DNA of 64,000 nucleotides from an uncultured Planctomycetales bacterium (GCA_964354795.1 CAYHBB010000003.1:5887-69886); one strand, 5' to 3'. Counted from the first letter of the stretch, positions 3 to 42,259 are shown. Notes: generated by a model from the sequence alone, not told the origin. Numbers and translations: made by a program.

Positions 3-2501
3 TTGATGGAACTTGGCGCTGGTTTTAATCCTGAGTTTACGGGGCGTGAAAATATTATTATTAATGCGCGGGTATATGGTTTGCATGAGGATGTTCTTGC
101 GCAAAAGATTCCGGAAATCCTTGAGTTTTCAGGGCTGGGAAGATTCATTGATGCGCCGATAAAATATTATTCGCAAGGCATGTATATGCGTTTGGCGTTT
201 GCTCTTGCTGTATTTGTCGAGCCCGATATTTTTTTGGTCGATGATATATTGTCAGTAGGGGATGAGGATGCGCAACAGAGGTGTATTAAGAAGATATTTG
301 AGTTAAAGAAATCCGGTAAGACTATAGTTGTTGTCAGTCACGACATGAACATAGTAAGCAGGCTCTGCGACCGCGTTATACTGTTGGATCACGGAAGAAT
401 TGTCCAGGAAGGCCAACCGGGGAAGGTTCTTTCATACTATTTGGAAACAGCTGGTGAAAAGAAAGGAATTGCTTCTTTTGAGCATGACGGGATAAGGGTC
501 GTGTTTAATAATGGCAGGCTAGGCGTTTCATATCGCGGCAACCTGATTACTAAAGGCGTCGGTGCTCATACCATATTCTATGATCGTTTGCTTGGCAGTT
601 ATGTAACTTCCGAAAATCTTTCTTGGCAGATAAGCTCTATTTCTGCAACTGAAATCATCGCTGAGGGGTGGATGCATGAAGGCCAGCTTTCGCAGGTATG
701 GTCAATAGGGTTGTCTTGCGGTGATTTGTCATTTCAGGTCAAGATAGAAGATCAGTGTAAGCAGGAGTTTCATATGGATTTCTTGCTTAAGCCTCAATAC
801 GTATCCTGGAATACATTCGATGTAAGCGGTATATTCCCGCCGTATGTTCATAAAACTAATTGGCAGAGTTTGAATATTGGTGTTCCGGAAGAAGGATTGG
901 TCGCGTTAAGTCCAGGCTCGCAGGAAGAAAATACGCCTTCTATTGTTTTTGAAAATACTTATAAGGACAGCGAGATACGATTATTTAATACGGGTTATGA
1001 TCAGGAATCACGGGGTTTGCAGTATTTTTTAGGGCAGGAGGGGGCAATTTCAATCCGTTTAAAAACGATCCCTAGCATAAAAGACTATCAAAACTTTGTT
1101 GAGTCTAAGAAGAAAGAGCTATTGCTAAATAAAGACCTGAAAAAATGGAGAGCGTTAGCAGTGCAAAGAATTTCCTGCGGTGATATAAGTTTTTTTGTAG
1201 ATATCGAAAATAAAATTTTGCGGATTTTCTCAAAAGATGCAGAGATAACCAGCGGGGGCGGTTTGCGGGCATTGATAACCGTAGGGGGCTCTTTGTATAG
1301 CTCTAAAGATGCGCAGTGGCAGGTTCGCAAAATTTCAGGGCAATTGTTGGAATTGACAATGGAATATGGGGCAATGCCATTTACTCAGCGGTGGATATTC
1401 AATGCTGAGCAGGAAAATACAATTACCTACTCAATAAAGATGGAGTCTGAGCAACGAATAGTTTTTAAAAAGCAGGATGTGGTCCTGGAGGTTGTTGATA
1501 GTTATATTAGTTGGCGGACACCATACGAAGAAGGAGGGTTTACTGAGGCTCAATATGTTTTGGGGATCCTTCCTGTGCGTTTGCGTGAAAGTAAAGTCAG
1601 GGAGATATCGCTAGCGTCTATGAGCAATGGAGCGTCAGATTATTTATTTCTCCAGGTAACACCGAGTCCGCATAAACAATTATTGGGGATTTATAAACAG
1701 AATTTATCGCAAAAAGAAAGCGTGTGTGTGAATTCCTCGATTATCGTTTCGAAAAATAATGAACTGCTTGAAGGCGGGATACATGAAGTTTTTGATGCGA
1801 AGATAGTCTTACATAGAGATATTAGTCCACGGAGTTCTTCAGTATTAGGCGAGGATATAACATTAGAGAATAAAAAATTGCGGATTGTTTTTGATCAAGG
1901 AAGAGGGAGAATCTTTTGGGGAGAGACAGAGGTGACTGTTGGATTAGGCCTTTTTACATCCGTGCGTTCATCCGGCATTTGGCATGATTCTTATCAGGCG
2001 GCATGGGATAAGGATTATGTTCGGGATAATAAAATAAGCGTTACTGGCTATTGGCCGTATATCCCCATTGTCCAGACATGGCAGATCCAGCTTTTAGATA
2101 GCAAAACAATTTACTGGAAAGTGGATGTGAAGGTTCTTGCTCCTTTTAATCTGGAGTTAGAGCAGTCGAATCTTATGCTTTCTGCGGAATATAAAAAATG
2201 GTCTGTTGACGGTGGTATTGGTGGTGACTTTTTAGATGAGTTTACCCGGCAATACGATATTCTGCCGTTTCGGTTTTGGTATGGCAAGTCTTTGCAAAAT
2301 GGTATAGTCGTTCGTGCTAATCTTTCTTCAGTCTTGTTCCAGGATAAATCAGGCAATGAAGATACCAGGGGAATTGTAGAGAATAGCGATTATCTATATG
2401 GGGCCCGTATGCTGCAATATCAGAATTCTCCTAAAGCGGATGCGTCCCTTGGTCAATATACGTATTTTGAAGGGGTGATACACGTTGAGTCTGAAGAATA
2501 A
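3..2501 (+). CDS. Wzt/TagH-type polysaccharide-export ABC transporter ATP-binding protein, 5'-truncated at the window edge, with a ~680-aa C-terminal extension of three ~120-aa W-rich repeats
   Basis: The first ~150 aa match the C-terminal half of TagH/Wzt nucleotide-binding domains: signature YSQGMYMRLAFALA, Walker B/D-loop FLVDDILSVGDEDAQ and H-loop VVSHDM. The ORF runs to base 3, so Walker A lies outside the window. Three repeats follow with the pattern F..G.G...G..T.G.GL......G.W.DS..A.W......PI.Q.W.I....I.WK. Confidence 0.85.
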   Translation: MMELGAGFNPEFTGRENIIINARVYGLHEDVLAQKIPEILEFSGLGRFIDAPIKYYSQGMYMRLAFALAVFVEPDIFLVDDILSVGDEDAQQRCIKKIFELKKSGKTIVVVSHDMNIVSRLCDRVILLDHGRIVQEGQPGKVLSYYLETAGEKKGIASFEHDGIRVVFNNGRLGVSYRGNLITKGVGAHTIFYDRLLGSYVTSENLSWQISSISATEIIAEGWMHEGQLSQVWSIGLSCGDLSFQVKIEDQCKQEFHMDFLLKPQYVSWNTFDVSGIFPPYVHKTNWQSLNIGVPEEGLVALSPGSQEENTPSIVFENTYKDSEIRLFNTGYDQESRGLQYFLGQEGAISIRLKTIPSIKDYQNFVESKKKELLLNKDLKKWRALAVQRISCGDISFFVDIENKILRIFSKDAEITSGGGLRALITVGGSLYSSKDAQWQVRKISGQLLELTMEYGAMPFTQRWIFNAEQENTITYSIKMESEQRIVFKKQDVVLEVVDSYISWRTPYEEGGFTEAQYVLGILPVRLRESKVREISLASMSNGASDYLFLQVTPSPHKQLLGIYKQNLSQKESVCVNSSIIVSKNNELLEGGIHEVFDAKIVLHRDISPRSSSVLGEDITLENKKLRIVFDQGRGRIFWGETEVTVGLGLFTSVRSSGIWHDSYQAAWDKDYVRDNKISVTGYWPYIPIVQTWQIQLLDSKTIYWKVDVKVLAPFNLELEQSNLMLSAEYKKWSVDGGIGGDFLDEFTRQYDILPFRFWYGKSLQNGIVVRANLSSVLFQDKSGNEDTRGIVENSDYLYGARMLQYQNSPKADASLGQYTYFEGVIHVESEE

Positions 2502-5500
2502 TATTGAGAAGCTTAGAAAACATTTGGAAATCGGTGGAATCGGTTACGCCTTTCGCCGTGCCATTAAATATTTCTTGTATTTGTTAAGGGCAATTTTTCT
2601 ACGTTTTCAGAAAAAGCCCGCGGAAATTACCCTGGGGTCAAAAGTTAAGCTTTGTTTTGAGCAGTCAGCTGTGCATCTATTTTTTAATGGAACGCAGGTC
2701 ACCTCGGGGCCCGGTCTGCATGTGGCAATAAATAGCTTGGGCGTCTGGGAGGATTTAACGCAGGCTGACCTTAAAATTGTTAAAAAGCAGCGGGATTCCG
2801 TCACTTTACGGATACGACACCATAAATTTCCTATTACTCAGTTTTGGACTATTAAACGAGAGGCAGAAGAAAAGATATCTTGGAAGATTAAAATACAAAT
2901 AAGAGAAACTATGCATATTGACGAGATATGCATAGCCTGTGGGGTCCATCCTCAATATAAGAGTTGGGTAAAAGATTATTTGCAGAATGATTTTCCAGCT
3001 TTTGGGGCTCAATGGCGAGATATTTATCTCGAAGATGTATCTGTTTTTTTGTTGGGAGTGAGAATCCCGGTCCAGGGCGCTACTTTACCCTCGTTGGCTT
3101 TAGAATTAAATGATTCCCAGTTGTTTCCTTTTATTAGGAATTCTACGCTGGGAAATAGTTTTCACGTCATTGGTACCAGGCACACCGTGCTTAAATCTAT
3201 CTCAAAATGTAGCCGGGGAATGTCAGTTTCTTTTTCGCAGGCCATAAATTTCTTCGAGAACGATGCAGACCTAGATTTAAAAATCGAATTATTTAGAAGA
3301 AAATTGGTGGCCAAGGCAATTAGTGAGAAGACTGGATTATTAGCGCCCTACCGCAAAAGAATTCTTTTGGTGAATCTCCCGTGGCAAAGACGCGGCTGTT
3401 GGGGGGTACGAGCTGGTTCGCGGTGGCCGCATATAAAGGACGTAAGTGAAGGGGACTATTTACCGTTCCCTTTTTTTCTTAGCTATGCTACTGCATTGTT
3501 AAAGAATAATGATTTTAGTGTCACTATTATTGATGCCGTTGCAGAGCAGATGCCAGAAGCCAAATTATTAGAGTTTATCTCGGGTAATAAATTCGATTAT
3601 GTTGTCGCTGAGACATCTATTCCGTCGTTTAGCAATGATCTTCGTATTCTTGGGGGTATTTCCAAATTAAGGGTTTCAATAATTTTATGCGGCCCGAATT
3701 ACCAGATTTACAAACCTGAGTTTTTACAGCAGCATCGGTTTATTGACTTTGTTCTTTACGGAGAATATGAATTCAATCTTCTTCAGTTAATGCGCTGCTT
3801 TAAAGACAAGGGTGATGTTTCAGGTGTGAGTGGCTTATTATATAGAAAAGACGGGAAAGTTTACAAGACCGAATCCGGACAGCCGTTTGATATAAACCTT
3901 CTACCTTGGCCTGAGCGAGAAAGCCTTCCGCTTTTAAAGTATTTGGATGCCCCGGGAGGAATGTTGACACCCAGCGCGCAGATTATTGCATCGCGCGGTT
4001 GCCCGTTTGGGTGTAAGTTTTGCCTGTGGCCTCAAGTGGTCTATCAGGGCCGGCACTATCGAACGCGGAATGTTATTGACGTTGTTGATGAAATGGAATA
4101 TTTGATCAGGGAGAAGGGATCCAGGTCAGTTTATTTTGACGATGATACATTTAATATCGGCAAAGAACGAATGTTTGAGTTTTGCGATCAGATTATTAAA
4201 CGAGGATTGAATCATACTCAGTGGGCGATCATGGCGCGTCCGGACCTAATGGATGAATCACTATTGGACAAATTTAAGGAAGCCGGATTATACGCCGTAA
4301 AATACGGTGTTGAATCGGGCGTCCAGGATTTATTGGATAATATCGGAAAGGCAATGGACCTGGAGTATGCACAGAGGATGATTCGCTATACGCAAAAAAT
4401 AGGCATCAAGACACATCTGACATTTACCTTTGGACTTCCTGGGGAGACCAGGGAAACTATCGAGAAGACGATTGCTTTGGCAAAAAGCCTGGACCCTTTC
4501 TCTGTGCAGTTTTCTTTAGCTACCCCTTTTCCCGGGACCGAGTATCATCGAATATTAGAAAAATGCGGCTGTATCATCTCTAAAGATTTATCCAGTTATG
4601 ACGGTCATTCTAGCAGTGTGATCAAACTGGGGAATCTGGGTTCAGGCGATCTTGAAGAAGCTAAAGTCAGGGCTTATCAGGTATGGTTTGAGTATGTAAA
4701 GAAAAGAAGGGGTTTTCTGGGTAATATAAAGAGGGTTTATGATTTTTTGAAAAGAAACAATATTTCTTATGTGTTGAAGAGGGTAGTTGGCTATCTTACG
4801 AAAGCGTTGCTTAAGAAAGGTATTTCTGAAAATAAGCATAAGGACAATAGTCCGGATATTCTCCTTATTCAGTGTCCACCATGGGATTTTAGTATGGCAC
4901 CTCTGGGGGTTGCATACTTGTCTAGTTATTTGGAGAAACTTGGTTACAAAGCTGACGTTTTTGATCTTAATATAAAATTATATAATTCGGTCGCGGAAAA
5001 ATACCGGCATTACTGGGAGCAAAAAAATATTTGCTTATGGTCTGTAGAGGATTTATTTGAGAACACGTGGTCTGTCTTACAAGATGAAGTGCTATCTCTT
5101 ATGGAAGATGTGATTAAAAATGGTTCGCCTTGTATTGGGCTTTCGGTTAATTTCGGTGGTATTCGCTTTGCCATTAAACTTCTTAATATAATAAGGCAAA
5201 AGAATAAGAGCATAAAAATAATTGTTGGTGGATGGGGGGTTATTGACGAGTACATGCGCGGACTATTCCCGAAAGAAATGCTAGATGCTTTTGTAATAGG
5301 TGAGGGAGAGCAGACTCTTGTTGAAGTGATTGACGTTTTTAGAGGAAAACGCAAGGATAGAAACGTGCTCGGCGCAATATTTACAGAAAATGAAAATTCT
5401 GAATTTAAGCTGCGTAAGCCGATTGCGGATATTAATACCATTCCCTGGCCGACATTTTCTGATTTTGATCTGAAATCTTACAAAAATGTGCTTATACCGT

Positions 5501-6237
5501 TGTTTACCAGTAGGGGATGCATAGGGCATTGTACTTTTTGCAATGACTGGGTCTATTCTAAGCCGTACCGTTACCGTAACGCCAAAAATATCTTTAAGGA
5601 GATCAGGTACCATGTGGAAAATAACCGTGTGAACGCGTTCTCTTTTAAGGATTTGCTATGTAACGGAAACCTTAGGGAGCTAGGGAATCTGTGTGACTTG
5701 CTTATTGAATCAGGCCTTGAGATAGCCTGGGATTCGCAGGCTATTACCCGTAGGGAGATGACGTATGAGTTTCTGTGTAAGCTGAAAAAAAGCGGGTGCA
5801 CGACCTTGATTTATGGAATAGAAAGTTTTTCTGATAACGTGCTTAGGCGTATGGGTAAAATATTCGATAGAGAGACAGCGGAGCTGGTGCTTAAAAGTAC
5901 CCATAAGGCGGATATAGGATCTTTGATCAACATTATCGTTGGTTTTCCGGGCGAGACTGAGCAAGATTTTCAAGAGACCCTGGACGCGTTAGAGTTAAAC
6001 CGGCCGTACCTGAGTGGCGTAGGCGCAGTGAGCGTCTGTTTGGTAAACGGCAATAGTCCATTATGCTGTAAAAAGAATGAATTCGGTATAGTAACTCCAT
6101 CCGAGATCAGCAGTTCGGCTAAACAATGGATGAGCAGTGACGGAAAAAACACCTATGAGATCCGGAAGCAAAGAGCGGAAAAGGTGATAGAGCTAATAAC
6201 GCATTTGGGGTTATCCTATGAAACTGCGACTATTTGA
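2485..6237 (+). CDS. 1250-aa protein with an N-terminal W-rich repeat domain like those in the upstream Wzt tail, followed by two tandem B12-binding radical SAM (class B) modules; probable TTG start overlapping the upstream stop by 17 nt
   Basis: Module 1 has a Rossmann-like B12-binding segment (RILLVNLPW...VTIIDAVAEQ) and then CPFGCKFC (CxxxCxxC). Module 2 has ILLIQCPPWD...KADVFDLN and then CIGHCTFC. Residues 40-160 follow the same pattern as the three repeats in ORF 3..2501. The first in-frame ATG is more than 130 codons downstream. A GGGGTG Shine-Dalgarno-like tract lies 8 nt before the TTG. Confidence 0.8.
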   Translation: MSLKNNIEKLRKHLEIGGIGYAFRRAIKYFLYLLRAIFLRFQKKPAEITLGSKVKLCFEQSAVHLFFNGTQVTSGPGLHVAINSLGVWEDLTQADLKIVKKQRDSVTLRIRHHKFPITQFWTIKREAEEKISWKIKIQIRETMHIDEICIACGVHPQYKSWVKDYLQNDFPAFGAQWRDIYLEDVSVFLLGVRIPVQGATLPSLALELNDSQLFPFIRNSTLGNSFHVIGTRHTVLKSISKCSRGMSVSFSQAINFFENDADLDLKIELFRRKLVAKAISEKTGLLAPYRKRILLVNLPWQRRGCWGVRAGSRWPHIKDVSEGDYLPFPFFLSYATALLKNNDFSVTIIDAVAEQMPEAKLLEFISGNKFDYVVAETSIPSFSNDLRILGGISKLRVSIILCGPNYQIYKPEFLQQHRFIDFVLYGEYEFNLLQLMRCFKDKGDVSGVSGLLYRKDGKVYKTESGQPFDINLLPWPERESLPLLKYLDAPGGMLTPSAQIIASRGCPFGCKFCLWPQVVYQGRHYRTRNVIDVVDEMEYLIREKGSRSVYFDDDTFNIGKERMFEFCDQIIKRGLNHTQWAIMARPDLMDESLLDKFKEAGLYAVKYGVESGVQDLLDNIGKAMDLEYAQRMIRYTQKIGIKTHLTFTFGLPGETRETIEKTIALAKSLDPFSVQFSLATPFPGTEYHRILEKCGCIISKDLSSYDGHSSSVIKLGNLGSGDLEEAKVRAYQVWFEYVKKRRGFLGNIKRVYDFLKRNNISYVLKRVVGYLTKALLKKGISENKHKDNSPDILLIQCPPWDFSMAPLGVAYLSSYLEKLGYKADVFDLNIKLYNSVAEKYRHYWEQKNICLWSVEDLFENTWSVLQDEVLSLMEDVIKNGSPCIGLSVNFGGIRFAIKLLNIIRQKNKSIKIIVGGWGVIDEYMRGLFPKEMLDAFVIGEGEQTLVEVIDVFRGKRKDRNVLGAIFTENENSEFKLRKPIADINTIPWPTFSDFDLKSYKNVLIPLFTSRGCIGHCTFCNDWVYSKPYRYRNAKNIFKEIRYHVENNRVNAFSFKDLLCNGNLRELGNLCDLLIESGLEIAWDSQAITRREMTYEFLCKLKKSGCTTLIYGIESFSDNVLRRMGKIFDRETAELVLKSTHKADIGSLINIIVGFPGETEQDFQETLDALELNRPYLSGVGAVSVCLVNGNSPLCCKKNEFGIVTPSEISSSAKQWMSSDGKNTYEIRKQRAEKVIELITHLGLSYETATI

Positions 6238-7483
6238 TTTGTTTATGGGCAGGTTTTTAGGTTCAGGCTATCAAAAACATCAAGAAGGCAATTTTGTCGC
6301 AAAAAAAGACCTTGTCTTAGAGGGGATACTTGATGGTTCTCTGGCTTTTTCTGGGCCTCAGACAGTCCAGTTCGATGTGACTAACCGTTGTAATAATAAT
6401 TGCTTGTGTTGTTGGAATAATTCTCCCTTTTTAGGCGATTTACCTGAGGATAGGCTAAAGGAAAAGGAAGACGAGCTGCCGTTAAAGCTCATAAAGAAGA
6501 TTTTCGCAGAATTGAAAGGCCTCGGTACTAAGAATTTGGTTCTTGCTGGAGGCGGAGAGCCATTTATGCATCCTAAGATTATTGATATTTTAAGCGCAGC
6601 AAAGAAATGTAATTTTCGCGTTTCTATTAATACGAATTTTACGCTTATTGATGAGAAAATTGCAAAAAAACTTGTAGATTTAAAGATCGATTTGATTCAT
6701 GTTAGTCTTCTCGCAGGTACTCCTAAAACTTATGCAGTGGTTCACCCCAATAAGACTGAGGAGACTTTTTTGCGGATAGTTCGGGTACTTAGATATATGG
6801 TTGAAGAAAGAAACAGGCGCTACCAAAACGGGCCTATACCTCAGCCGCACGTAGATCTTTATTATGTGATTTTTAATCAAAACTATCGTGACATACGGGC
6901 AATGACTGATCTTGCCATGGATTTGCGGGTCAATACGCTTGAATTTACACCTATTGACGTTATTCCCGGAAAGACAGATGTTCTGCTGCTTAATGAGCCC
7001 CAGAAAAGAGAAGTGCTCGAGTCTGTAATTGCGCAAAAGATTAGGCTCGAAGAGTTTAACCGGCAAAATGGGGGAAAAGTTACTTTTATTGAACAGTACG
7101 ATCCGTTTATAAAGCGCCTATCTGCAGAGAATGCCGTAAAAGGTCAATACGAGTCTACTACAATAGTGCAGCAGCCTTGTTATGTAGGATGGGCCTTTGC
7201 GCGCATACTTGCTAACGGTAATGTCACCCCTTGTCTTAAGGCCCATCGGGTGACAACGGGTAATATTTATAAGCAAAAGTTCAGGAATATTTGGAACAGC
7301 CCAGAGCAGCAGTTGTTTAGGAAGAAGGCTTTTATGCCCCAGAAAAACGATCAGTATTTGAGAAGTATTGGCAATAACCCCAGCGAGGACTCAGGTTGCC
7401 TTAGTAGTTGCGATAATATCCAGATTAACATTGAAATGCACGCAAAATATCATGCTGTAACTAACAAAAATGCGAAATCTTAA
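6218..7483 (+). CDS. radical SAM enzyme with a C-terminal SPASM/twitch-like Cys motif (paralog 1 of 3 in tandem)
   Basis: VTNRCNNNCLCCW (CxxxCxxC), GGGEPFMHP SAM-binding GGE motif, C-terminal PCYVGWAFARI...PC...GCLSSC cysteine cluster; overlaps the upstream gene. Confidence 0.75.
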   Translation: MKLRLFDLFMGRFLGSGYQKHQEGNFVAKKDLVLEGILDGSLAFSGPQTVQFDVTNRCNNNCLCCWNNSPFLGDLPEDRLKEKEDELPLKLIKKIFAELKGLGTKNLVLAGGGEPFMHPKIIDILSAAKKCNFRVSINTNFTLIDEKIAKKLVDLKIDLIHVSLLAGTPKTYAVVHPNKTEETFLRIVRVLRYMVEERNRRYQNGPIPQPHVDLYYVIFNQNYRDIRAMTDLAMDLRVNTLEFTPIDVIPGKTDVLLLNEPQKREVLESVIAQKIRLEEFNRQNGGKVTFIEQYDPFIKRLSAENAVKGQYESTTIVQQPCYVGWAFARILANGNVTPCLKAHRVTTGNIYKQKFRNIWNSPEQQLFRKKAFMPQKNDQYLRSIGNNPSEDSGCLSSCDNIQINIEMHAKYHAVTNKNAKS

Positions 7484-8696
7484 GAAATTCATAGCGGATA
7501 GAGATAAATTTTTTTTAGTCAGCGGAATACTTCATTCCTCAAGAGCTTTTATCGGCCCAGAAGTCCTTCATGTTGATTTAACTAACGTTTGTAATTTTAG
7601 TTGTATTGCATGCTGGTGTCGTTCCCCACTCTTGGAAGAAAAGGGAATGCCTGAATGGGAAAGGAAGCTAGCGCTGTCCACAGAAGTTGTAAAGAAAGCC
7701 TTTGACGATCTGGCAGGAATGGGGGGATTAAAGCAGGTCAAATTGGTTGGCGGCGGAGAGCCATTTATGCACCCGGACATCTTGGAAATCGTTGAATATA
7801 TCAAGGGAAAGAACAAAAATATCGCAATTGACATCAATACAAATTTTAGCCTTGTTGACCGATCTATTATTGGGAGGCTGTTGGAGCTTGGCGTTGATTC
7901 ATTAACCGTAAGCCTCTGGGCAGGAACTTTTAAAGCATATGTCGCAGTCCATCCAATGCAGAAGGAAGATATATTTTATAAAATAAAAGATAATCTTAAG
8001 TTCATATCTACAGAAAAGAACAGGCTAAACATTAAGAGACCCCGGATTGTCCTGCACGATGTCATTATGAACCTGAACTATGGGGACATGTGGGAGATGC
8101 TGCAATTTGGTCTTGATGTAGGAGCGGATGACATTCAGTTTGTCCCTATTGATCCTGTGAAGGGAAAAACAGAATCGCTGTTGCTTAATGATAGTCAAAG
8201 GGCTGAGTTATTGCAAGTAGCCCATAAAATATTGACGCGATACAATAGGAATAACTTTGAATATTTATCCGAGGATGGCCGTAGCATTACTCTTTCAGAT
8301 TTTGAGGGGTTTATCAGGCGTATCGAAAAGCTTGATACAAAAAGCGGCGTTTATGACGAGCTCCGTGTTGCGATGATACCTTGTTATGTTGGTTGGCTTT
8401 TTGCCCGGATAATGGCAACCGGAAATGTTGTGCCCTGTTGCAAGGGGCACCGTATGACTATGGGCAATGTCAATGAAGACAGCTTTAAGAGGATTTGGAA
8501 TGGTAAGCGATACCGTGAATTTAGGAATAAAGCCAAGAATATGGATAAATCAAATCCATATTTCTCCCTTTTTGGGAATGACGCCTCGACAGATACGGGT
8601 TGCTATAATTGTGATAATTTGTGGCAGAATGAGCCTATGCATAGGTTGATCAAGTCTTTACCCTTGCATAAACGTAAATTCTTGTTTTTTAAATGA
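7470..8696 (+). CDS. radical SAM enzyme with SPASM/twitch-like C-terminus (paralog 2 of 3)
   Basis: LTNVCNFSCIACWC, GGGEPFMHP, PCYVGWLFARI...PCC...GCYNCDN; clearly paralogous to the flanking genes. Confidence 0.75.
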   Translation: MRNLKKFIADRDKFFLVSGILHSSRAFIGPEVLHVDLTNVCNFSCIACWCRSPLLEEKGMPEWERKLALSTEVVKKAFDDLAGMGGLKQVKLVGGGEPFMHPDILEIVEYIKGKNKNIAIDINTNFSLVDRSIIGRLLELGVDSLTVSLWAGTFKAYVAVHPMQKEDIFYKIKDNLKFISTEKNRLNIKRPRIVLHDVIMNLNYGDMWEMLQFGLDVGADDIQFVPIDPVKGKTESLLLNDSQRAELLQVAHKILTRYNRNNFEYLSEDGRSITLSDFEGFIRRIEKLDTKSGVYDELRVAMIPCYVGWLFARIMATGNVVPCCKGHRMTMGNVNEDSFKRIWNGKRYREFRNKAKNMDKSNPYFSLFGNDASTDTGCYNCDNLWQNEPMHRLIKSLPLHKRKFLFFK

Positions 8697-10090
8697 AAGA
8701 CTATTCAAAAGAAAAATCAGTGATTTCTTTTCTTAACCACTATTGCCGAGATCACGGCGCAAAACGCACTTTACAAGGCTTCAGGCGCAATCTTAATCTA
8801 TGCAATCTTTTTGATGAATACCGTATTTTGAAAGGCATTGATAGCAGAATATATGCTTTTTGCTCGCCTTTATCTGTTCAGATCGATCTTACAAATGACT
8901 GCAATAATGATTGCCTCTGCTGCTGGTGTAATTCTCCTTTACGAAAAAATGAAGAAGTACGCCCTGACAAGTTATCGCTTGATTATGAAGTTATTTTGGG
9001 TGTTTTCGATGAATTGCAGCGTGCGGGGACGCGGGAGATCATTCTTTCCGGAGGAGGAGAACCATTTCTATACCCTCGATTATTCGAGGTAATTGCTGAG
9101 ATCAAGAAAAGAGGATTAATTACTCAGTTATATACAAATTTTACGCTAATCAACAAAGAATCAATCAAGAGTTTAGTTGAATTGGCTGTTGATCGCCTGA
9201 CAGTAAGCCTGTGGGCAGCAGATCCCAAGATGTATTGTATTTTGCACCCCAACAGGCAAGAGGCTGACTTTCTTAGGATTAAGGATAACCTAATTAACCT
9301 AAGAATAATGAAGCAGGGGCTTAAGAAGAATAAGCCAATTGTTTGCCTGCACAATGTTATTAACTCAAAGAATTTTCGTCAAATAAATGAGATGACTGAT
9401 TTTGCTATTTTGGTTGGCGCAGATGAAGTAAGGTTTTCAGTTGTAGATGTCATACCAGGCGTTACGGATGAGCTTTTACTTAGCGATGAACAGAGGCAGT
9501 TTGTAATCAAAGAATGTAAGGGGCTAAATAATAATAGCCGCATAACCGATCTGGGTAGGTTTATGCAGATGGTTTCTTCTGATGGCGCATCCAAAGGAGA
9601 ATATGATAGAGGTGTAGTTAATAATTACCCCTGCTATACAGGGTGGCTATTTGCTCGGATCAGGGCAGACGGAAGCGTTAACCCTTGTCTAAAGTCGCAT
9701 CGTATCAGTCTCGGGAATATCTACCAGAATAGTTTTAAAGAGATCTGGAATTCGCCTTTCGCGCAAGAATTTAGATCACAGGCCCAGAAGTTGAAGTCCG
9801 GAAACCCATATTTTTCTATGGTAGGTAACGGCAGCGGCACTGATATAGGCTGTTTCAGGGTATGTGATGATCTATCAAGGAATATTTTTATGTATAGAAA
9901 GCTTAAGTTCTATCCTACTACAAAAGTTCTCCGTGTGTTTATCGGCCTTAAGAGTGCAGTTGTCGGTAACTTTAAGATAATAAAACGCTGGTTTAATTTA
10001 TTTTATTTGTTTGGAGTGGTTATTTTATATAGCGTTATACTTAAACTGCGCAGGCTGGTAAGCAATATTACTATTTTCCCGGGAGAGTAA
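8693..10090 (+). CDS. radical SAM enzyme with SPASM/twitch-like C-terminus (paralog 3 of 3) and an extra hydrophobic C-terminal tail
   Basis: LTNDCNNDCLCCWC, GGGEPFLYP, PCYTGWLFARI...PC...GCFRVCDD; C-terminal VVILYSVILKL looks like a TM segment. Confidence 0.75.
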   Translation: MKDYSKEKSVISFLNHYCRDHGAKRTLQGFRRNLNLCNLFDEYRILKGIDSRIYAFCSPLSVQIDLTNDCNNDCLCCWCNSPLRKNEEVRPDKLSLDYEVILGVFDELQRAGTREIILSGGGEPFLYPRLFEVIAEIKKRGLITQLYTNFTLINKESIKSLVELAVDRLTVSLWAADPKMYCILHPNRQEADFLRIKDNLINLRIMKQGLKKNKPIVCLHNVINSKNFRQINEMTDFAILVGADEVRFSVVDVIPGVTDELLLSDEQRQFVIKECKGLNNNSRITDLGRFMQMVSSDGASKGEYDRGVVNNYPCYTGWLFARIRADGSVNPCLKSHRISLGNIYQNSFKEIWNSPFAQEFRSQAQKLKSGNPYFSMVGNGSGTDIGCFRVCDDLSRNIFMYRKLKFYPTTKVLRVFIGLKSAVVGNFKIIKRWFNLFYLFGVVILYSVILKLRRLVSNITIFPGE

Positions 10091-10093
10091 GCA

Positions 10094-11266
10094 GTGAATA
10101 TCCTGATGGTGCATCCACACGAGGTTTATTCTTCTTTAGAGCCTTGGACAACGCGGGTTATAAATCTGGCGCGCGTTTTGGCAGCCGGTGGGCATGCTGT
10201 AAAAGTAATATATTTTCCGTTTTTATGGAATGCCAAGTTGAAAAGTTTTACAAGGGATGGTGTAGAGTTCCTTCCTTTTTCTAGAAGAACTGGGATATAT
10301 AATATTGCATTTAATTGCAATAAGTTTTCATCGATTGTCAAATGGGCGGATATTGTGCATTTCCAGAAATGTTTTCATTACGCGTCTTTGCCTGCGATAC
10401 TCAACGGTATGCTTAAGAATAAGCCATTGCATTACGACTGGGACGACTGGGAAGAGATGATCTATTATGAATCCGCAAGGCCGGCAATCAGGGGAGTAGG
10501 CTCATTCTTGAGGACGCTTGAAAAAAATATTCCTACTTTGGTAGACACTATTTCGGTTTCAAGTGAATGCCTGCGCGGATTATGCTTGGAGATGGGCCTT
10601 GACGAAGAGAGGGTCTTTACTGTCCCTGTGGGAGCGGATCTCGATAAGTTCAGTCCTTCAGTTTCAGGAGATAGAATAAGGAAGATGTATAACATTAATC
10701 GTCCCTTAGCCATGTATATTGGCCAGCTGCACGGTGGCCAATATGCCAGCCTTTTTATCCACGCGGCTAAAATCCTTATTGAAAAAGGCGTTGAGGCTGA
10801 TTTTATGATTGTTGGTGACGGTTCGAGGGGGTATGAATTGCGTAAACTTACGAGAATGCTTAAGCTTGACCGTAAGATCATCTTTACCGGGGCAGTTGAT
10901 ACAGATCTTATGCCGGAATATATCGCTAGCTCAGATGTGGCGGTGGCTTGTTTTGAGGATAACTTAGTCACACGTTGTAAAAGCCCGCTAAAGATCGCTG
11001 AATATCTGGCTTGTGGTAAGGCTATAGTTGCAAGCCGGGTAGGGGAAGTAGAGAAGATGGTTGGTGATGCGGGGATACTAGTTGATCCGGGGCAGAGCAA
11101 GCCGCTTGCTGAGGGAATATTGAGTTTATTAATCGATGATAGATTAAGAATAAAGCTTGGGGAAAAAGCGAGAACGAGGGCAGAAGAAGTATATAACTGG
11201 AAGAATTCTGCTAATACGCTTCTTAAGGCGTATGAGTTTGGTAGGAAACAAAAATCCAATGCCTAA
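10094..11266 (+). CDS. GT4-family (GT-B fold) glycosyltransferase; GTG start
   Basis: C-terminal EYLACGKAIVASRVGEVEKMV matches the GT4 E-x7-E donor-binding motif, with a retaining-GT-like N-domain. Confidence 0.75.
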   Translation: MNILMVHPHEVYSSLEPWTTRVINLARVLAAGGHAVKVIYFPFLWNAKLKSFTRDGVEFLPFSRRTGIYNIAFNCNKFSSIVKWADIVHFQKCFHYASLPAILNGMLKNKPLHYDWDDWEEMIYYESARPAIRGVGSFLRTLEKNIPTLVDTISVSSECLRGLCLEMGLDEERVFTVPVGADLDKFSPSVSGDRIRKMYNINRPLAMYIGQLHGGQYASLFIHAAKILIEKGVEADFMIVGDGSRGYELRKLTRMLKLDRKIIFTGAVDTDLMPEYIASSDVAVACFEDNLVTRCKSPLKIAEYLACGKAIVASRVGEVEKMVGDAGILVDPGQSKPLAEGILSLLIDDRLRIKLGEKARTRAEEVYNWKNSANTLLKAYEFGRKQKSNA

Positions 11267-11281
11267 CGAAATCAGAAAGCC

Positions 11282-12877
11282 ATGTTCATAAAAAAATCGC
11301 ATATAGCTATTTTGATTATTTTAGTTTTGTTTCTTGGAATCTCTAACCTTGTTTGGCTTTCGCTTAATCAGATGCCTCCCCTTGATGATGAGGGCTTTCA
11401 TATAGCAAGGTGTATAAAAATTCTAAACATAATAACTCATTCGCCATTCTTTGATTCTCCTAGAATAATTTTTGATAACAATTTGTACCCGCCTCTTTTT
11501 CATTTTGTTGCAGCTATTTGTGCTTTTATTTTTGGTAAGAGTATCGTAGTTTTGATCATGAGCAATCTTATTTTTGTTTCTCTGGCTTTTTTCTCGCTTT
11601 ACTTGATCGGTTTGAAACTAGGAGATGGAGGGATTGGCTTATTGGCCTCGTTTCTGTTATTGTTATATCCCATGTTTTTCTATTTGAGTCGTTGCTTTTT
11701 GCTGGAAATCGCGGTTTGCTCTATTGTAATAGCAAGCATAGCAGCTTTAATGTATTCTGAAGGATTTAGAAAGGTTATCCCTAGCGCTATATTTGGTTTC
11801 TTTCTGGGATTAGGGATGTTAACGAAACAGTATTATGTTGTATTTATTGCTGGTCCAGCTTTCTTTTTACTATTCGATTCCTTGTTAAAAGAAAGATCAA
11901 AAAAAAGGGTTTTTCTTAATTTTATCTTTGCTTTATCCCTTGGAGTTGCTATAGCTGCTTTGTGGTATGTTCCGAATTTCAGCAAAATGTTGCCGTTACT
12001 TATTTCTGCAGCAAGTGATTCAAGTTTGGCACCCTTAGATTTATTAGGTTTTTCGTTTAAAAACATATTATTTTATTTTAATTTAATATTTAACGGACAA
12101 ATATTATTGTTTTTCTTCCTAACATTTCTTTTTTCAGCTTTCATATTCTTTAGAAAAGTTGAGCGTAGATATTCTTTCTTGTTATTAAGCTGGATGATTA
12201 TCCCATATATTATTTTTACTTTATTTCGCAATAAGTATTATTACTACACTCAATCGTATCTGCCGGCGATAGCATTGATTACTGCGTACGGACTTTTGAA
12301 TATTCGAAGAGCTTTTTTTAGAAGAATCGTCATTTTGTTCGTTGTCTGTGCTGGCTTATTTCAGTTTATTGTCATCTCTTATTTTAATTTAAAACAAAAT
12401 AAGCTGACGCTTAGCTTGAGAAATCCTTACGTAAGAATTCTACCTATTAATTTGACTAGTATCCAGGCAAAGAAAGAATATTACCCTCAGTCAGAGAGGC
12501 AGGGTAGGGATGTTATGGGGAAGATTGCTGCGAAGATTAACCATAACTGCCCTGGCAAAATCGCCAAAATATTAATTATTGAGCATGATGCAAATTATCT
12601 TTTAAGGAGGGGGATAAAGATTAGGGATAACTTTGAGGTAGTAAATTATGGAGGGTTTAAAGGTTATTCGTATTTAGTCGGGTCTCGCTTTGATATTTTT
12701 GGTGTAAATTTTAGCAAAATGAAAATAATTGAAGATCAGCTTGATTTTATAATAAGCCCAGAGAAATTAGAAAACATAGATGTTTATTCTTCAAAAAAAG
12801 GAGATTATGCACTGTTTGACAGTTTTATAATGCGAGACGGAAGCGTAGTTTATCTATATATGGCGACAAAGAGTTGA
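11282..12877 (+). CDS. polytopic membrane glycosyltransferase of the GT-C superfamily (ArnT/PMT/GT39-like)
   Basis: More than 10 predicted TM helices; a DE motif (PPLDDEGFH) in the first extracytoplasmic loop after TM1, as in ArnT/PMT enzymes. Confidence 0.55.
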   Translation: MFIKKSHIAILIILVLFLGISNLVWLSLNQMPPLDDEGFHIARCIKILNIITHSPFFDSPRIIFDNNLYPPLFHFVAAICAFIFGKSIVVLIMSNLIFVSLAFFSLYLIGLKLGDGGIGLLASFLLLLYPMFFYLSRCFLLEIAVCSIVIASIAALMYSEGFRKVIPSAIFGFFLGLGMLTKQYYVVFIAGPAFFLLFDSLLKERSKKRVFLNFIFALSLGVAIAALWYVPNFSKMLPLLISAASDSSLAPLDLLGFSFKNILFYFNLIFNGQILLFFFLTFLFSAFIFFRKVERRYSFLLLSWMIIPYIIFTLFRNKYYYYTQSYLPAIALITAYGLLNIRRAFFRRIVILFVVCAGLFQFIVISYFNLKQNKLTLSLRNPYVRILPINLTSIQAKKEYYPQSERQGRDVMGKIAAKINHNCPGKIAKILIIEHDANYLLRRGIKIRDNFEVVNYGGFKGYSYLVGSRFDIFGVNFSKMKIIEDQLDFIISPEKLENIDVYSSKKGDYALFDSFIMRDGSVVYLYMATKS

Positions 12878-13983
12878 ATATTATGAAAAAAGTAATTTTT
12901 ATAAGTCGTGAAGGATACAGGCTGCCAGGAGCAAGGGTGCGATGTTATAACTTTGCTAGAGAGCTTGCGAATCGTGGCGCTGATACAGGAGTTTTGTCTT
13001 TTTCCGATACATTAGGAGCTTTCGATGGCGAAAAAGAATCCAGCTTAAATTTAGGAAATAAGATTTATTATAATTTTAAAGCTTTTAAGATGTTGTTAAA
13101 AGATAAAAGCTTTATTTTTTATATCCAGCGGTTGAATTATCATTTTCTCGGACCATACCTAGCGCATGCTTTTCGAAGAAATAAGATTATTCTAGATCTT
13201 GATGATTGGGAGATGAGGGAAAATCCTCGCTATCATTTGGGAGTATATCCTACTTCAAAAGCGCATTATCTTACCAGGCGTCTTGCCAAGGAGAGTATCT
13301 TTTGTGTTGCTGCAAGCCATTTTCTGGAAAGTTTCTTACTGCAGTTTAATAAAATAGTATTTTACTTACCCTCTGCTGTGGATACCGGTTTATTTTCTCC
13401 GAATAAGGTGCTAAAAGCTAAAGAGAAAGTGGTTTTTTCTTGGATAGGTACGTTTCATAGACCAGAGTATATCGAGAATATTGCATTTGCTTTAGATTGT
13501 TTTAAAGTTTTGCGTAATCGTTATGCAAATATTTTCTTTGAGATTGTTGGAGATGGGATTTTTAAAAAAGATTTGGATAGGATAGTTTCTGGTTTTTACG
13601 ATGACCATATTGTTCTCAAAGGCTGGATTGAGCCAGATGCTATCCCCGAATACTTGGATGGTGTAGATGTCGGGCTTTTTCCGGTTTTGAGGAAAACAAA
13701 GTTTAACCTAGCTAAGAGCCCTACTAAGCTTTTTGAATATATGGCAATGGCAAAGCCAACGATTTCAAGCGCTATCGGAGAGCCTGTCTCCATAATAGCT
13801 CAAGAGGAGAATGGGTTATTGGCTCAAACCAAAGATGAATTTATTTTTCAGATGGAAAGGCTTGTTAAAGATGCTGCTTTGAGAGAGCGTCTTGGCAAAA
13901 ACGCTCGAAAAACTGTAGAAGACTTCTATTCTCTTAAGGTTTTGGGAAATAAATTAAGAGAAGCATTGCTTCAATACGCATGA
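12874..13983 (+). CDS. GT4-family glycosyltransferase
   Basis: EYMAMAKPTISSAIGEPVSIIAQEENGLLA C-terminal GT-B/GT4 motif; overlaps the upstream stop. Confidence 0.7.
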   Translation: MNIMKKVIFISREGYRLPGARVRCYNFARELANRGADTGVLSFSDTLGAFDGEKESSLNLGNKIYYNFKAFKMLLKDKSFIFYIQRLNYHFLGPYLAHAFRRNKIILDLDDWEMRENPRYHLGVYPTSKAHYLTRRLAKESIFCVAASHFLESFLLQFNKIVFYLPSAVDTGLFSPNKVLKAKEKVVFSWIGTFHRPEYIENIAFALDCFKVLRNRYANIFFEIVGDGIFKKDLDRIVSGFYDDHIVLKGWIEPDAIPEYLDGVDVGLFPVLRKTKFNLAKSPTKLFEYMAMAKPTISSAIGEPVSIIAQEENGLLAQTKDEFIFQMERLVKDAALRERLGKNARKTVEDFYSLKVLGNKLREALLQYA

Positions 13984-16368: not shown

Positions 16369-17496
16369 ATGAATAAGGAAGAAGAGCTGATTGTATCTTT
16401 ATTAAGAAGGGTTATTTCAGGCGAGAATGAGGGTTTCTGCGCTCAGGAGCATATTGAACGCATAAACTGGAATAGGTTTAAAGAATTAGTCTCGCACCAC
16501 GAGATACACCCGATATTATATCCTGTGGTGTTGGATTCCGCGTTTTTATTTCCTCCTGGTATGATTATTTTCTTAAAAGACAATTATTTCTATAATTTAA
16601 TTATTAACCAGAGGTTGTTAGGCGAATTTTCGTGTATATCTGAAGCTTTTAAGCAAGTCAAAATCGCAATAGTCCCCTTAAAAGGCGTAGCTTTTTTACA
16701 GGATATATATATGAATATTCCTTCGCGGCGGATGTCGGATATCGATTTACTGGTAGAAAAGAATAATCTGCCGCGCGCAAGAATAATTTTATCAGATTTA
16801 GGTTTCGTGGAACGTTTGGAAGGTCTTAGTCAAAACTATTGGTTAGAAAAACAATGCCACATCCCACTTTTGAAAAAGAATTCAGATAATGACATGATTG
16901 AACTGGATTTGCACTTTGGCCTTGATTTTAAGAGAGAGAAAGGGGAGATTTTGCCCCAGCTTTGGTCAAGGGCATGCAGCGGGACGCTGTCACCGGAGGA
17001 TTCGCTTTTCAGCCTGGCGCTTCATCAGCGCAGATTCGGAAAGGCGCTTTGCTTGAAGAATGTAGTTGACACCGGGCTAATCCTAAAAAAATACCAAAAT
17101 TCATTCGATTGGGATTATGTGATCAAGCAAGCGAAGTTAGGGCGGATGTGCTCAACGGTGTTTTTCTTGTTGGCGCAGGTAAAAAATATTTTTGATTCAG
17201 AAATAAACATGCCGAATTTAAACGTATTATGTTCAAGTCATCTTAAAAGAAAACTAATCTCGTCTTTTATTAAGAAAAATGTGTTTATCGATTCTTCTGC
17301 CAGAAAGGCAAATGAGCTGTATCTAAAAAGCCATTTTCTTCTGTATGATGATTTTTTTGAGCCCATAAAGTATATTTTAAATATTCCACAAGAGCAATTC
17401 GCCAAGTTTTATAAACTCAAGCCTTATAGCAAAGAAACTGTTTTTTTGTATAATAATAGAATATTGTATATATTATTTAGGTTAGTTTTAGGTTAG
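16369..17496 (+). CDS. uncharacterised nucleotidyltransferase-family protein (PF14907-like)
   Basis: LKGVAFLQDIYMNIPSRRMSDIDLLVEKN matches the Pol-beta-type [S]-x-D-[IL]-D-[LV] nucleotidyltransferase motif in a ~370-aa protein of the PF14907 type. Confidence 0.5.
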   Translation: MNKEEELIVSLLRRVISGENEGFCAQEHIERINWNRFKELVSHHEIHPILYPVVLDSAFLFPPGMIIFLKDNYFYNLIINQRLLGEFSCISEAFKQVKIAIVPLKGVAFLQDIYMNIPSRRMSDIDLLVEKNNLPRARIILSDLGFVERLEGLSQNYWLEKQCHIPLLKKNSDNDMIELDLHFGLDFKREKGEILPQLWSRACSGTLSPEDSLFSLALHQRRFGKALCLKNVVDTGLILKKYQNSFDWDYVIKQAKLGRMCSTVFFLLAQVKNIFDSEINMPNLNVLCSSHLKRKLISSFIKKNVFIDSSARKANELYLKSHFLLYDDFFEPIKYILNIPQEQFAKFYKLKPYSKETVFLYNNRILYILFRLVLG

Positions 17497-17526
17497 GATC
17501 TAGTAAAGACTGGGTTAATTACTAAA

Positions 17527-18306
17527 ATGAAAATTATCGTTTTAATGGCAGGAGAGGGTAGGCGTTTCGCAGGTTTTCAGAATATACCTAAACCTCTTGT
17601 AAAGCTTGGAAACGCCGAATTAATAAAATGGGCGGTCAATTCTTATAATTTTTTAGGATTAAGCGTTGACTGGTCGGATGTTTTTTTTATTACAAGAGAG
17701 GAATATATAAAAGATTTCTATATTGATCAAAAGTTAAAAGAGATGTTTTCACCCAAAGTTAATATTCGTTATGTCAAACAGACGACCCGTGGTCCTGCTG
17801 AGACTGCCATGTTGCTTGAAAAAGAAATACCTGCTGATGAGCAGGTAATAATCAGTGATTGCGATATGTTTTTTAATAGCCTGCCGTTATATATGGAAAT
17901 GATGAAAGTTAGAAATAATCCTTTAATCTGGGGGATATTGCCTTATGTGAAAAGAGATGATGACCAGAACAGCTGGAGTTATGCTCAGCTTGATAAGGAT
18001 AAAAAGTTAATTAAGGTTAATGAGAAGGATGAAAATATGTTTAAGGCAGGCTGTCCCGGCATTGTTGGCGCCTATGTTTTTAATCGGTGGAAATATTTCA
18101 CGAATGAAGCGAAGAAGATGATTGATGAAGATGATTTGAGCGGGGAAGAGCATAAAAAAGAATTCTATATGTCAAAAGTTTTTCAGCGTTTTATAAAGCA
18201 GGGGCGGACAGTAATCGGGGTAGATGTATATCCTGCATGGATCTTAGGTACGCCAGCGCAATTTGTCAGGTTCGAAAGCTTACTTAGGGGTGTAAAGGGA
18301 GAATGA
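17527..18306 (+). CDS. sugar- or alcohol-phosphate nucleotidyltransferase (GT-A-like NTP_transferase family)
   Basis: N-terminal IIVLMAGEGRRF...PKPLV glycine-rich loop, typical of RmlA/IspD/LicC-type nucleotidylyltransferases. Confidence 0.55.
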   Translation: MKIIVLMAGEGRRFAGFQNIPKPLVKLGNAELIKWAVNSYNFLGLSVDWSDVFFITREEYIKDFYIDQKLKEMFSPKVNIRYVKQTTRGPAETAMLLEKEIPADEQVIISDCDMFFNSLPLYMEMMKVRNNPLIWGILPYVKRDDDQNSWSYAQLDKDKKLIKVNEKDENMFKAGCPGIVGAYVFNRWKYFTNEAKKMIDEDDLSGEEHKKEFYMSKVFQRFIKQGRTVIGVDVYPAWILGTPAQFVRFESLLRGVKGE

Positions 18307-31017: not shown

Positions 31018-31761
31018 ATGAAAAGCATTTCAATTGTTTATCCAGTTTATAATGAAGAATCCTATGTTAAATTGACCATAGAGCAAGCGCTAGCAACTAT
31101 TTCAAAAATAACCAATGATTTTGAAATAATTGTTGTTAATGACGCAAGTTCAGATAATACCTTGGCCCTATTGAGAGAATATTCCAGAGATAATAACAAG
31201 ATAAAGATTTATTGTAATGAGACTAATAACAAATTAGGTGGGACTTTAAGAAAAGGCTTCAAAGAGGCGACTAAAGAGCTAGTGCTTTATTCTGATTTTG
31301 ATATGCCATTTGACCTGAAGGATGTCAATGAAGCCCTAGAAATATTTAATAAAGAAAAAGCCGATTTACTATCTGCATACAGAATAAATAGGGAAGTCGA
31401 TGGCTTAAAAAGAACCGTTTATAGCATTATTTATAATTGGCTAGTTAATTTTCTATTTAAAATTAATCTAAAAGATATTAATTTCTCTTTTAAGCTATTC
31501 AATAGGAGGATATTGGATAGTATTATTTTAGAATCGGAGGGGTCATTTATTAGCGCAGAGTTCCTAATAAGAGCGAAAATGCAAGGTTTTAAAATCGTGC
31601 AATTTCCAGTTATGTATTATTCTAGAAGTAAGGGACGCTCTCGTTTAGCTTCTATCGGTGTAGTGGTAAAGATAATAAAAGAGCTTTGTATTTTTTATTT
31701 TGTAAATTTTAACGCCATTATAAAGAGAAATATTTTGGGGGGGAAAGTCATTGGGTATTAA
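31018..31761 (+). CDS. GT2 polyprenol-phosphate glycosyltransferase-like (DPM1/GtrB-type) protein
   Basis: SIVYPVYNEESYV...IIVVNDASSDNT, DFDMPFD, RSKGRSRL. Confidence 0.7.
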   Translation: MKSISIVYPVYNEESYVKLTIEQALATISKITNDFEIIVVNDASSDNTLALLREYSRDNNKIKIYCNETNNKLGGTLRKGFKEATKELVLYSDFDMPFDLKDVNEALEIFNKEKADLLSAYRINREVDGLKRTVYSIIYNWLVNFLFKINLKDINFSFKLFNRRILDSIILESEGSFISAEFLIRAKMQGFKIVQFPVMYYSRSKGRSRLASIGVVVKIIKELCIFYFVNFNAIIKRNILGGKVIGY

Positions 31762-31808
31762 AGTTATTATAGGTCAGAAGCTACTAAGCCCGGGGAGGGT
31801 GCTGGACC

Positions 31809-33185: not shown

Positions 33186-33187
33186 TC

Positions 33188-42137: not shown

Positions 42138-42259
42138 ATAAGCAATTCTTGCGAACATGGCAAATCGTCTTTTGAGATGTTACATAACTGGGCTATAAAT
42201 GGAGAGAAGATTTGGTCAACGATAAATCGGAATATTTTTCTAAGGTGGCTATGCATGTA

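Follow-up and report, generated by a model that had tools for sequence, protein, structure and literature searches.

The stretch of DNA described here, 64,000 nucleotides from an uncultured Planctomycetales bacterium (GCA_964354795.1, CAYHBB010000003.1:5887-69886), is referred to as the window, with positions counted from its first letter, and carries at 2485..6237 on the plus strand a gene that encodes two predicted class-B-type radical S-adenosylmethionine (SAM) modules, M1 and M2, in one polypeptide. The gene is an uninterrupted open reading frame (ORF) of 3753 nt with the layout N-M1-M2; an exact-sequence look-up of its 1250-aa product returned no record. The first possible start is TTG. 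In its favour, the homologues are already conserved at residue 1 (MSLKNN..KF.KHL), and some 9 nt 5' of this codon there is a GGGG-rich stretch that resembles a Shine-Dalgarno sequence. The upstream exporter ORF ends at 2501 and overlaps the fused gene by 17 nt in a different frame, and the downstream radical SAM gene, S1, overlaps it by 20 nt. Start codon and exporter overlap agree with a first-pass annotation made from the DNA alone, while its picture of a two-part protein has to be revised: M1 and M2 fill only aa ~301-1250, and aa 1-300 constitute a third, unannotated part that is common to the exporter ATPase.

The whole fused protein gives two Radical_SAM and two B12-binding matches in Pfam, and each half is recognised as a radical SAM enzyme when aa 301-760 (M1) and aa 761-1250 (M2) are run separately, with scores against PF04055 of 72.6 bits (E 5.6e-20) and 66.2 bits (E 5.1e-18), respectively, far above the gathering score of 29.5 bits. 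The M1 core lies at 3982..4479 on the plus strand (aa 500-665) and holds the cluster motif CPFGCKFC (nt 4000-4023, aa 506-513), with C506, C510, and C513 retained by 97% or more of 120 homologues; the M2 core, at 5506..5988 on the same strand (aa 1008-1168), holds CIGHCTFC (nt 5518-5541, aa 1012-1019), with C1012, C1016, and C1019 conserved in at least 95% of 34 M2 modules. Both CxxxCxxC motifs align to positions 1-3 of the PF04055 profile, the start of the core, and are in register when M1 and M2 are compared directly by BLASTP (28% identity over 248 aa, E 5e-24). Since the cysteine triads and the flanking motifs (FDDDTFN, GVES, and GLPGE in M1; FKDLLCNG, GxES, and GFPGE in M2) are invariant across orthologues, neither module looks degenerate and both appear to be intact. 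The original proposal of two full radical SAM modules in one polypeptide, each with its own CxxxCxxC, is borne out by domain parsing with PF04055.

A Rossmann-type region precedes each core. In M1 it lies at 3385..3981 on the plus strand (aa 301-499; Pfam B12-binding match at aa 332-429) and holds a GVRAGSRWPH motif (aa 307-316) that is invariant among the homologues; in M2 the B12-binding-like domain lies at 4894..5328 on the plus strand (aa 804-948). The AlphaFold2 model of aa 301-1250 (mean predicted local distance difference test score, pLDDT, 85.5) consists of two Rossmann-plus-barrel modules in which both B12-binding-like regions are α/β, and class B structures are the top Foldseek matches, the best being AprD4, TsrM, MgmA, OxsB, CysS, and TokK. 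Between the modules lies a connector (4642..4845, plus strand) formed by a long helix (aa ~720-777) and a disordered linker (aa ~772-787); pLDDT falls below 50 at residues 472-487 of this model, exactly at the M1/M2 junction. The connector corresponds to a former gene boundary.

The closest database protein, P0001, is 96% identical; its locus, L009, lies in an independent assembly of a JGI metagenome and holds an ORF of equal length with 120 substitutions, no indel, and the same 17-nt exporter overlap. The ratio of non-synonymous to synonymous substitution rates (dN/dS) between the window and L009 is 0.19 overall, 0.10 in M1, and 0.26 in M2, and rises to about 1.2 at the junction (aa 736-800), a value derived from only 11 differences; the profile reads as two constrained domains joined by a free linker. 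The N-M1-M2 layout recurs in at least 13 homologues besides P0001, from JGI, ENA, NCBI, and Logan, twelve with 49-55% identity at about 100% coverage and one with 46% at 96% coverage. An assembly or sequencing frameshift joining two adjacent genes has something to recommend it, as in most relatives the modules are adjacent genes one nucleotide apart, which a 1-nt error could fuse; nevertheless, the junction consists of a ~65-residue in-frame linker without a stop codon, the independent assembly has the same ORF with its 120 substitutions, and fused orthologues at 46-55% identity come from many samples and sources, including archaeal metagenome-assembled genomes (MAGs). Such an artefact is hardly credible and was ruled out on the basis of the independent ORF and the fused homologues from several sources. 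On these comparisons the fusion is genuine and selectively maintained, and the single polypeptide of the first reading stands.

The way in which the modules are combined elsewhere was defined by domain mapping of the 120 best homologues, in which S denotes a radical SAM/SPASM enzyme as encoded by the downstream genes S1-S3. The prevalent form is N-M1 (78 of 120), followed by N-M1-M2 (14), N-M1-S (9), N-M1-S-M2 (8), and M1-M2 (8), while N-M1-M2-S and M1-M2-S were each found once; in one further protein N-M1 is interrupted by an intein. This protein, P0062 (1236 aa), carries the intein (PF14528 and PF14890) in its radical SAM core, at most ~35 residues downstream of FDDDTFN. Fused loci in genomes were counted by a stop-to-stop ORF check, and tblastn spans were dropped because adjacent split genes merge into one match; a single CxxxCxxC occurs in the M1 ORF of 54 of the 80 best loci from species-representative genomes, 24 loci have two of these motifs there, and 2 have three. 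The split state is well illustrated by L001 and L002, where an N-M1 gene of 798 aa ends in TAA and is followed after one nucleotide by the ATG of a separate M2 gene, whose product (468 aa) shares 56% identity with window aa 789-1250; M2 is in turn followed by three S genes, the orthologues of S1-S3. In L007, N has a gene of its own (234 aa), immediately 5' of an M1-M2 fusion.

The hosts of M1 loci among the species-representative genomes are overwhelmingly Candidatus Omnitrophota, with a few MAGs labelled Woesearchaeota, Methanosarcinales, Aminicenantes, Margulisiibacteriota, or Patescibacteria. An archaeal MAG (GCA_043826135.1, locus L005) has two M1-M2-type genes in tandem, encoding 964 and 971 aa, at positions 8001-13916 of that locus; the pair lies downstream of a Wzt gene and adjoins genes for a SPASM radical SAM enzyme, a sulfatase/phosphodiesterase, and a phosphoadenylylsulfate (PAPS) reductase.

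As M1 and M2 are each 50-65% identical to their own orthologues versus 28% to each other, the two halves belong to distinct subfamilies. A recent tandem duplication of one module was rejected on this 28% identity and on the 20-28% identity among the five B12-type modules of the window. The question whether the halves are duplicates or distinct had been raised with the first prediction, and the answer is in favour of distinct modules. In a neighbour-joining tree of M1 domains, which has no bootstrap support and gives no count of events, fused and unfused forms are interspersed; this suggests repeated fusion or fission of the modules. The Rosetta-stone pattern, in which modules are separate adjacent genes in some genomes and fused in other orders elsewhere, places M1, M2, and S with good reason in one pathway, and the fusion is an optional state of a conserved gene pair rather than a unique type of enzyme. 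The statement that the fusion implies two sequential radical steps is therefore kept in part: recurrent fusion and fission backs two steps in one pathway, but the fusion is optional and 54 of the 80 loci have a single CxxxCxxC in the M1 ORF.

A similar organisation is known from FbiC, the F0 synthase, which has two radical SAM domains in one polypeptide and separate adjacent genes (CofG and CofH) elsewhere, and whose domains each supply one 5'-deoxyadenosyl radical to one pathway step (PMC11917521). In contrast to the fused protein, FbiC has neither B12-like domains nor a targeting domain and is homologous only at the superfamily level; the likeness, drawn by analogy, is one of organisation only.

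Regarding the nearest families, M1 best matches HpnJ (TIGR03471; M1 by itself scores 233.9 bits and the full protein 308.7 bits, both far below the cut-off of 577.6), followed by BchE, Sden_1168, ApyD, PhpK, a ladderane-type protein, and AprD4 (NF033070; 104.1 bits, cut-off 500). Its closest solved structure is AprD4 (6fd2), both by sequence (E 9e-27) and by fold (Foldseek template modelling score, TM, 0.77-0.79 of target, with 22-23% identity), and sequence matches to TsrM and CysS were found as well. The best NCBIfam match of M2 is the C-methyltransferase TIGR03975, involved in the maturation of ribosomally synthesised and post-translationally modified peptides (RiPPs; 114.8 bits, below the cut-off of 281.85), with PhpK also matched; its closest solved structures by sequence and fold are MgmA (9ccb), CysS, and OxsB. 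Since no curated family threshold is reached, M1 and M2 are unassignable to any named family; by similarity, M1 is classed as a radical SAM module of class-B type in the vicinity of HpnJ, BchE, and AprD4, and M2 as a distantly related second class-B module whose nearest relatives are cobalamin-dependent methylases.

These relatives differ from the fused protein in several respects. HpnJ has the same Rossmann-plus-radical-SAM layout as M1, and the reaction proposed for it is a ring contraction of the glucosamine in a hopanoid glycoside, a lipid-attached amino-sugar glycoside; HpnJ and BchE are both non-methylases (PMC9204698). Unlike HpnJ, M1 has an extra N domain and a fused second radical SAM module and is not surrounded by hopanoid genes: around it lie the exporter, glycosyltransferase genes, and radical SAM genes of the SPASM type, and no cyclase was seen in the scanned ORFs. 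AprD4, a radical SAM 1,2-diol dehydratase of apramycin biosynthesis, acts on the sugar substrate paromamine and shares with M1 an N-terminal Rossmann-related domain, but it is a single module without cobalamin that works on a small soluble aminoglycoside. The cobalamin methylases MgmA (9ccb), CysS (9n1b), TokK, the PhpK family, and TIGR03975 are the nearest relatives of M2 in sequence and fold, although at ~15-20% identity and with peptides, proteins, and small molecules as substrates rather than a glycan cassette. The most economical assignment would be that M1 rearranges or dehydrates a sugar without methylating it and that M2 methylates, because the nearest neighbours are HpnJ, BchE, and AprD4 on one side and methylases on the other; of the two options first put forward, methylation plus rearrangement is favoured by these relatives, and iterative C-methylation by duplicated modules is disfavoured.

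Whether both modules bind cobalamin is a separate matter, the label B12-binding being one of fold and HMM similarity only. M2 scores 32.9 bits against the B12-binding profile PF02310, marginally over the gathering score of 32.1 bits, and M1 scores 20.8 bits, under this threshold. M1 aligns to positions 18-433 of 472 of the HpnJ profile and to positions 22-411 of the BchE profile, and since both profiles include the B12-binding-like domain, these alignments take in that domain of M1. The first annotation had placed a cobalamin-binding-like Rossmann segment before each core; as a predicted B12-binding domain this segment has marginal Pfam backing in M2, and in M1 it is backed by the nearly full-length alignments and weakened by the PF02310 score and by AprD4, which binds no cobalamin despite its Rossmann-related domain (PMC12931638). 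That only M2 is a cobalamin enzyme, M1 being an AprD4/HpnJ-like module with a Rossmann-like domain free of B12, is a serious possibility, though not the favoured one: AprD4 and ArsL demonstrate that the fold alone is no proof of cobalamin binding (PMC12931638), and no role for cobalamin has been established in non-methylases of the HpnJ type (PMC9204698), while BchE function depends on cobalamin biosynthesis in vivo (PMC9204698) and M1 also matches TsrM and CysS. Such a B12-independent M1 is compatible with the two-step enzyme proposed below.

The N-terminal third of the protein begins with a long helix (2491..2610, plus strand; aa 3-42) that is kept in homologues and is basic and amphipathic according to its AlphaFold2 secondary structure and hydrophobic moment; it is possibly an in-plane membrane anchor or a dimerisation helix. 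It is followed by the N domain, a β-supersandwich (2620..3255, plus strand; aa 46-257) delimited on the AlphaFold2 model of aa 1-300 (pLDDT 86.8), in which a connecting helix comes last. Neither Pfam nor NCBIfam gave a significant match for aa 1-300 or for the C-terminal tail of the exporter. Foldseek searches of the PDB with the N domain return mainly carbohydrate-active proteins (E 7e-7 to 1e-4), namely a blood-group galactosaminidase, chitobiose and cellobionate phosphorylases, and OpgD/OpgG, with aldose epimerases, GH63, and heparinase as further matches; as modelled, N has a carbohydrate-binding-type fold.

The N domain is homologous to three alignable repeats in the tail of the upstream exporter (E 2e-12, 3e-8, and 2e-5), located at ~480-1130, 1170-1790, and 1830-2498 on the plus strand. 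A profile search of 1.84 billion representative proteins with this domain yielded 615 clusters at 50% identity. In 71 of 147 further N-like representatives (P0121-P0267) a Walker A motif occurs within the first 120 residues, as for ATP-binding cassette (ABC) ATPases; these proteins carry 1-8 copies of the domain, and the two that were scanned against Pfam are ABC_tran. The lengths of such array ATPases cluster at about 460, 690, 910, 1140, and 1355 aa, with one of 2244 aa. Among the other representatives there are radical SAM or SPASM enzymes that carry the domain N- or C-terminally, and in P0235, a PMT_2 (GT-C) glycosyltransferase, four stretches match the N-like domain. The N-like repeats occupy the same place, the C-terminal extension of Wzt, as Wzt_C (PF14524) of O-antigen exporters, and the same role in polymer recognition is proposed for them; they are distinguished from it by a larger supersandwich, by their 1-8 copies, by their presence on tailoring enzymes, and by the lack of a PF14524 match in the N domain or the exporter repeats in the Pfam scan. 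In the archaeal L005, M1-M2 lacks N, and its Wzt shows a weak match to the classical Wzt_C, where Omnitrophota exporters carry N-like repeats, and no N-like domain.

The upstream gene (3..2501, plus strand) is the 3' part of a Wzt/TagH-like ABC exporter ATPase, with TagH and Wzt/RfbE as best NCBIfam matches and its 5' end outside the window. In L009 the orthologue is present in full (912 aa), and upstream of it lies a Wzm-like ABC-2 permease whose only NCBIfam match is Wzm/RfbD. Downstream of the fused gene, on the plus strand, three paralogous radical SAM/SPASM genes follow: S1 (6218..7483; PF04055 and PF13186), S2 (7470..8696), and S3 (8693..10090). Positional orthologues of S1 were found in L001, L003, L007, and L009, and in other genomes S1 is fused to M1 and/or M2. 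The last conserved member of the cassette is a GT4-type glycosyltransferase (10094..11266, plus strand), in the same position in the same four loci. The overlap of the exporter ATPase and enzyme reading frames is also conserved in these four loci, which suggests translational coupling of the two. Further downstream in the window there are genes for GT4, GT2, and several PMT_2 GT-C glycosyltransferases, nucleotidyltransferases, SAM methyltransferases, and an asparagine-synthase-like amidotransferase, and upstream in L003 (GCA_028718085.1) for a WaaL-like Wzy_C protein, a GT4, and a WecA-type phosphoglycosyltransferase. As judged from gene content, this is a cell-envelope glycan locus with a radical SAM block between exporter and glycosyltransferases.

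On this basis the fused protein is probably a membrane-proximal, two-step radical tailoring enzyme for a lipid-linked glycan exported by Wzm/Wzt; substrate, reaction types, cobalamin use, and order of steps are deduced here. The enzyme would lie at the cytoplasmic face of the membrane, placed there by the amphipathic helix and the N domain, which would grip the lipid-linked glycan bound for export. The radical SAM sites of M1 and M2 would then carry out two different radical steps on a sugar residue, that of M1 probably being a non-methylating rearrangement or dehydration and that of M2 probably a C-methylation by methylcobalamin, in cooperation with the three SPASM enzymes S1-S3 for successive modifications. 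The N-like repeats of the exporter may recognise the same polymer, by analogy with the carbohydrate-binding domains of Wzt. In the Escherichia coli O9a system, the carbohydrate-binding domains of Wzt read the chain terminus.

Several observations weigh against this interpretation, besides the PF02310 score of M1 and the cobalamin-free AprD4. Every NCBIfam match is far under its curated cut-off, which makes the reaction types nearest-neighbour guesses, and the predicted TM score (pTM) of the two-module model, 0.53, gives nothing on the mutual orientation of M1 and M2. The fold matches of the N domain are moderate (TM ~0.5, 7-10% identity) and include the non-carbohydrate P1 domain of YidC and the PBCV-1 capsid protein, and the correlation between N on the enzyme and N-like repeats on Wzt is based on five inspected loci.

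A different target is conceivable, namely a membrane lipid or polyprenyl carrier modified by hopanoid-, ladderane-, or tetraether-like chemistry and moved by the ABC-2 transporter. This is unlikely: M1 is indeed near HpnJ of the hopanoid pathway and matches the lipid biosynthesis B12-binding/radical SAM protein TIGR04072 (107.6 bits), the SPASM paralogues weakly match the tetraether synthase Tes (~36 bits), and the N-terminal helix is amphipathic; however, HpnJ itself works on the sugar of a hopanoid glycoside (PMC9204698), the N fold is of the carbohydrate-enzyme type, and in the window and related loci examined glycosyltransferases and WecA-like and WaaL-like proteins were seen, with no squalene/hopene cyclase or lipid-synthesis gene. 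More improbable still is a RiPP pathway, in which B12 radical SAM C-methyltransferases and SPASM maturases would act on a precursor peptide served by the ABC exporter. TIGR03975 is the top NCBIfam match of M2, ApyD and WgkB are among the matches, and SPASM enzymes are typical peptide maturases, but the scores remain far under the cut-offs, the exporter resembles Wzt/TagH and has a Wzm-like permease, the N domain is also present on a GT-C glycosyltransferase, and no conserved small ORF was found in L001, L003, L007, and L009; in fact, the genes between 2485 and 11266 overlap or are separated by 3-15 nt, too little to accommodate a gene for a precursor peptide.

Beyond the two-step tailoring of an exported glycan, a more tentative extension can be considered, in which the N-like β-supersandwich is a portable glycan recognition element that steers radical SAM enzymes, a GT-C glycosyltransferase, and the Wzt ATPase to one lipid-linked polymer, and a radical sugar mark, for example a ring contraction or dehydration followed by C-methylation, licenses export. 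This extension is speculative and, if true, it would be a carbohydrate counterpart of the RiPP recognition element; it would also represent the first instance in which a polysaccharide is tailored by a radical SAM assembly line of several modules, with as many as three radical SAM domains in one polypeptide.

Class B radical SAM enzymes have been studied as single-module catalysts on small molecules, peptides, and proteins. In the literature searched, no relevant paper was found on tandem or two-domain B12 radical SAM enzymes, on radical SAM enzymes together with Wzt/polysaccharide or O-antigen, or on radical SAM enzymes of Omnitrophota, and by a term search two recent reviews (PMC9204698, PMC12931638) apparently describe no fused or tandem forms; a preprint on giant proteins of Omnitrophota mentions radical SAM solely as one of the domains that make up giant multi-enzyme proteins. 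Already known are the radical SAM superfamily, the layout of class B, and, as a principle, the fusion of radical SAM enzymes that act consecutively; new with respect to this literature are the tandem class-B architecture with its triple-radical-SAM relatives, the setting in a Wzm/Wzt glycan cassette, and a putative targeting domain shared with the exporter. Natural polypeptides with two or three radical SAM modules and separate-gene counterparts offer an unusually clean system for the coupling of consecutive radical steps, and a putative targeting domain common to enzyme and exporter provides a testable hypothesis for the matching of modification to export. The gene neighbourhood suggests an exported cell-surface glycan as the target of radical tailoring in Omnitrophota, which are mostly uncultured and often host-dependent nanobacteria.

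Other features of the window concern the wider glycan locus of ~53 kb, almost all on the plus strand, in which about ten radical SAM domains are distributed between 2485 and 53104. Further B12-type radical SAM genes are located at 29611-30996, 31809-33185, and 42212-43891, and plain radical SAM genes at 49361-50404 and 52046-53104.

An HpnI/HpnJ/HpnK-like set lies at 31018-35435, its HpnJ/HpnK-like pair being 26 kb from the fused gene; it consists of a GT2 glycosyltransferase like polyprenyl-phosphate sugar synthases (31018-31761), a second HpnJ-like B12-type radical SAM enzyme (31809-33185; 164.8 bits), a YdjC/HpnK-like deacetylase (33380-34030; 126.8 bits), and a weak PMT_2-like GT-C (34020-35435). 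The composition of this set suggests that a deacetylated, possibly ring-contracted amino sugar is made on a lipid carrier. A second ABC-2 exporter pair is formed by an ATPase without C-terminal extension (36372-37037) and a permease (37027-37848). Among the glycosyltransferases, directly after two nucleotidyltransferase genes (16369-18306), there is a gene for a RuBisCO large-subunit-like protein (18303-19559) that best matches type III RuBisCO (213.5 bits, under the cut-off) and resembles enolase and OiaX-type RuBisCO-like proteins; it may act as a sugar-phosphate isomerase or decarboxylase in precursor supply. Finally, the G+C content rises from ~0.32-0.41 to 0.44-0.47 after ~56 kb (56000-64000), which suggests that the glycan locus ends near this point or differs in composition from the flanking genome.

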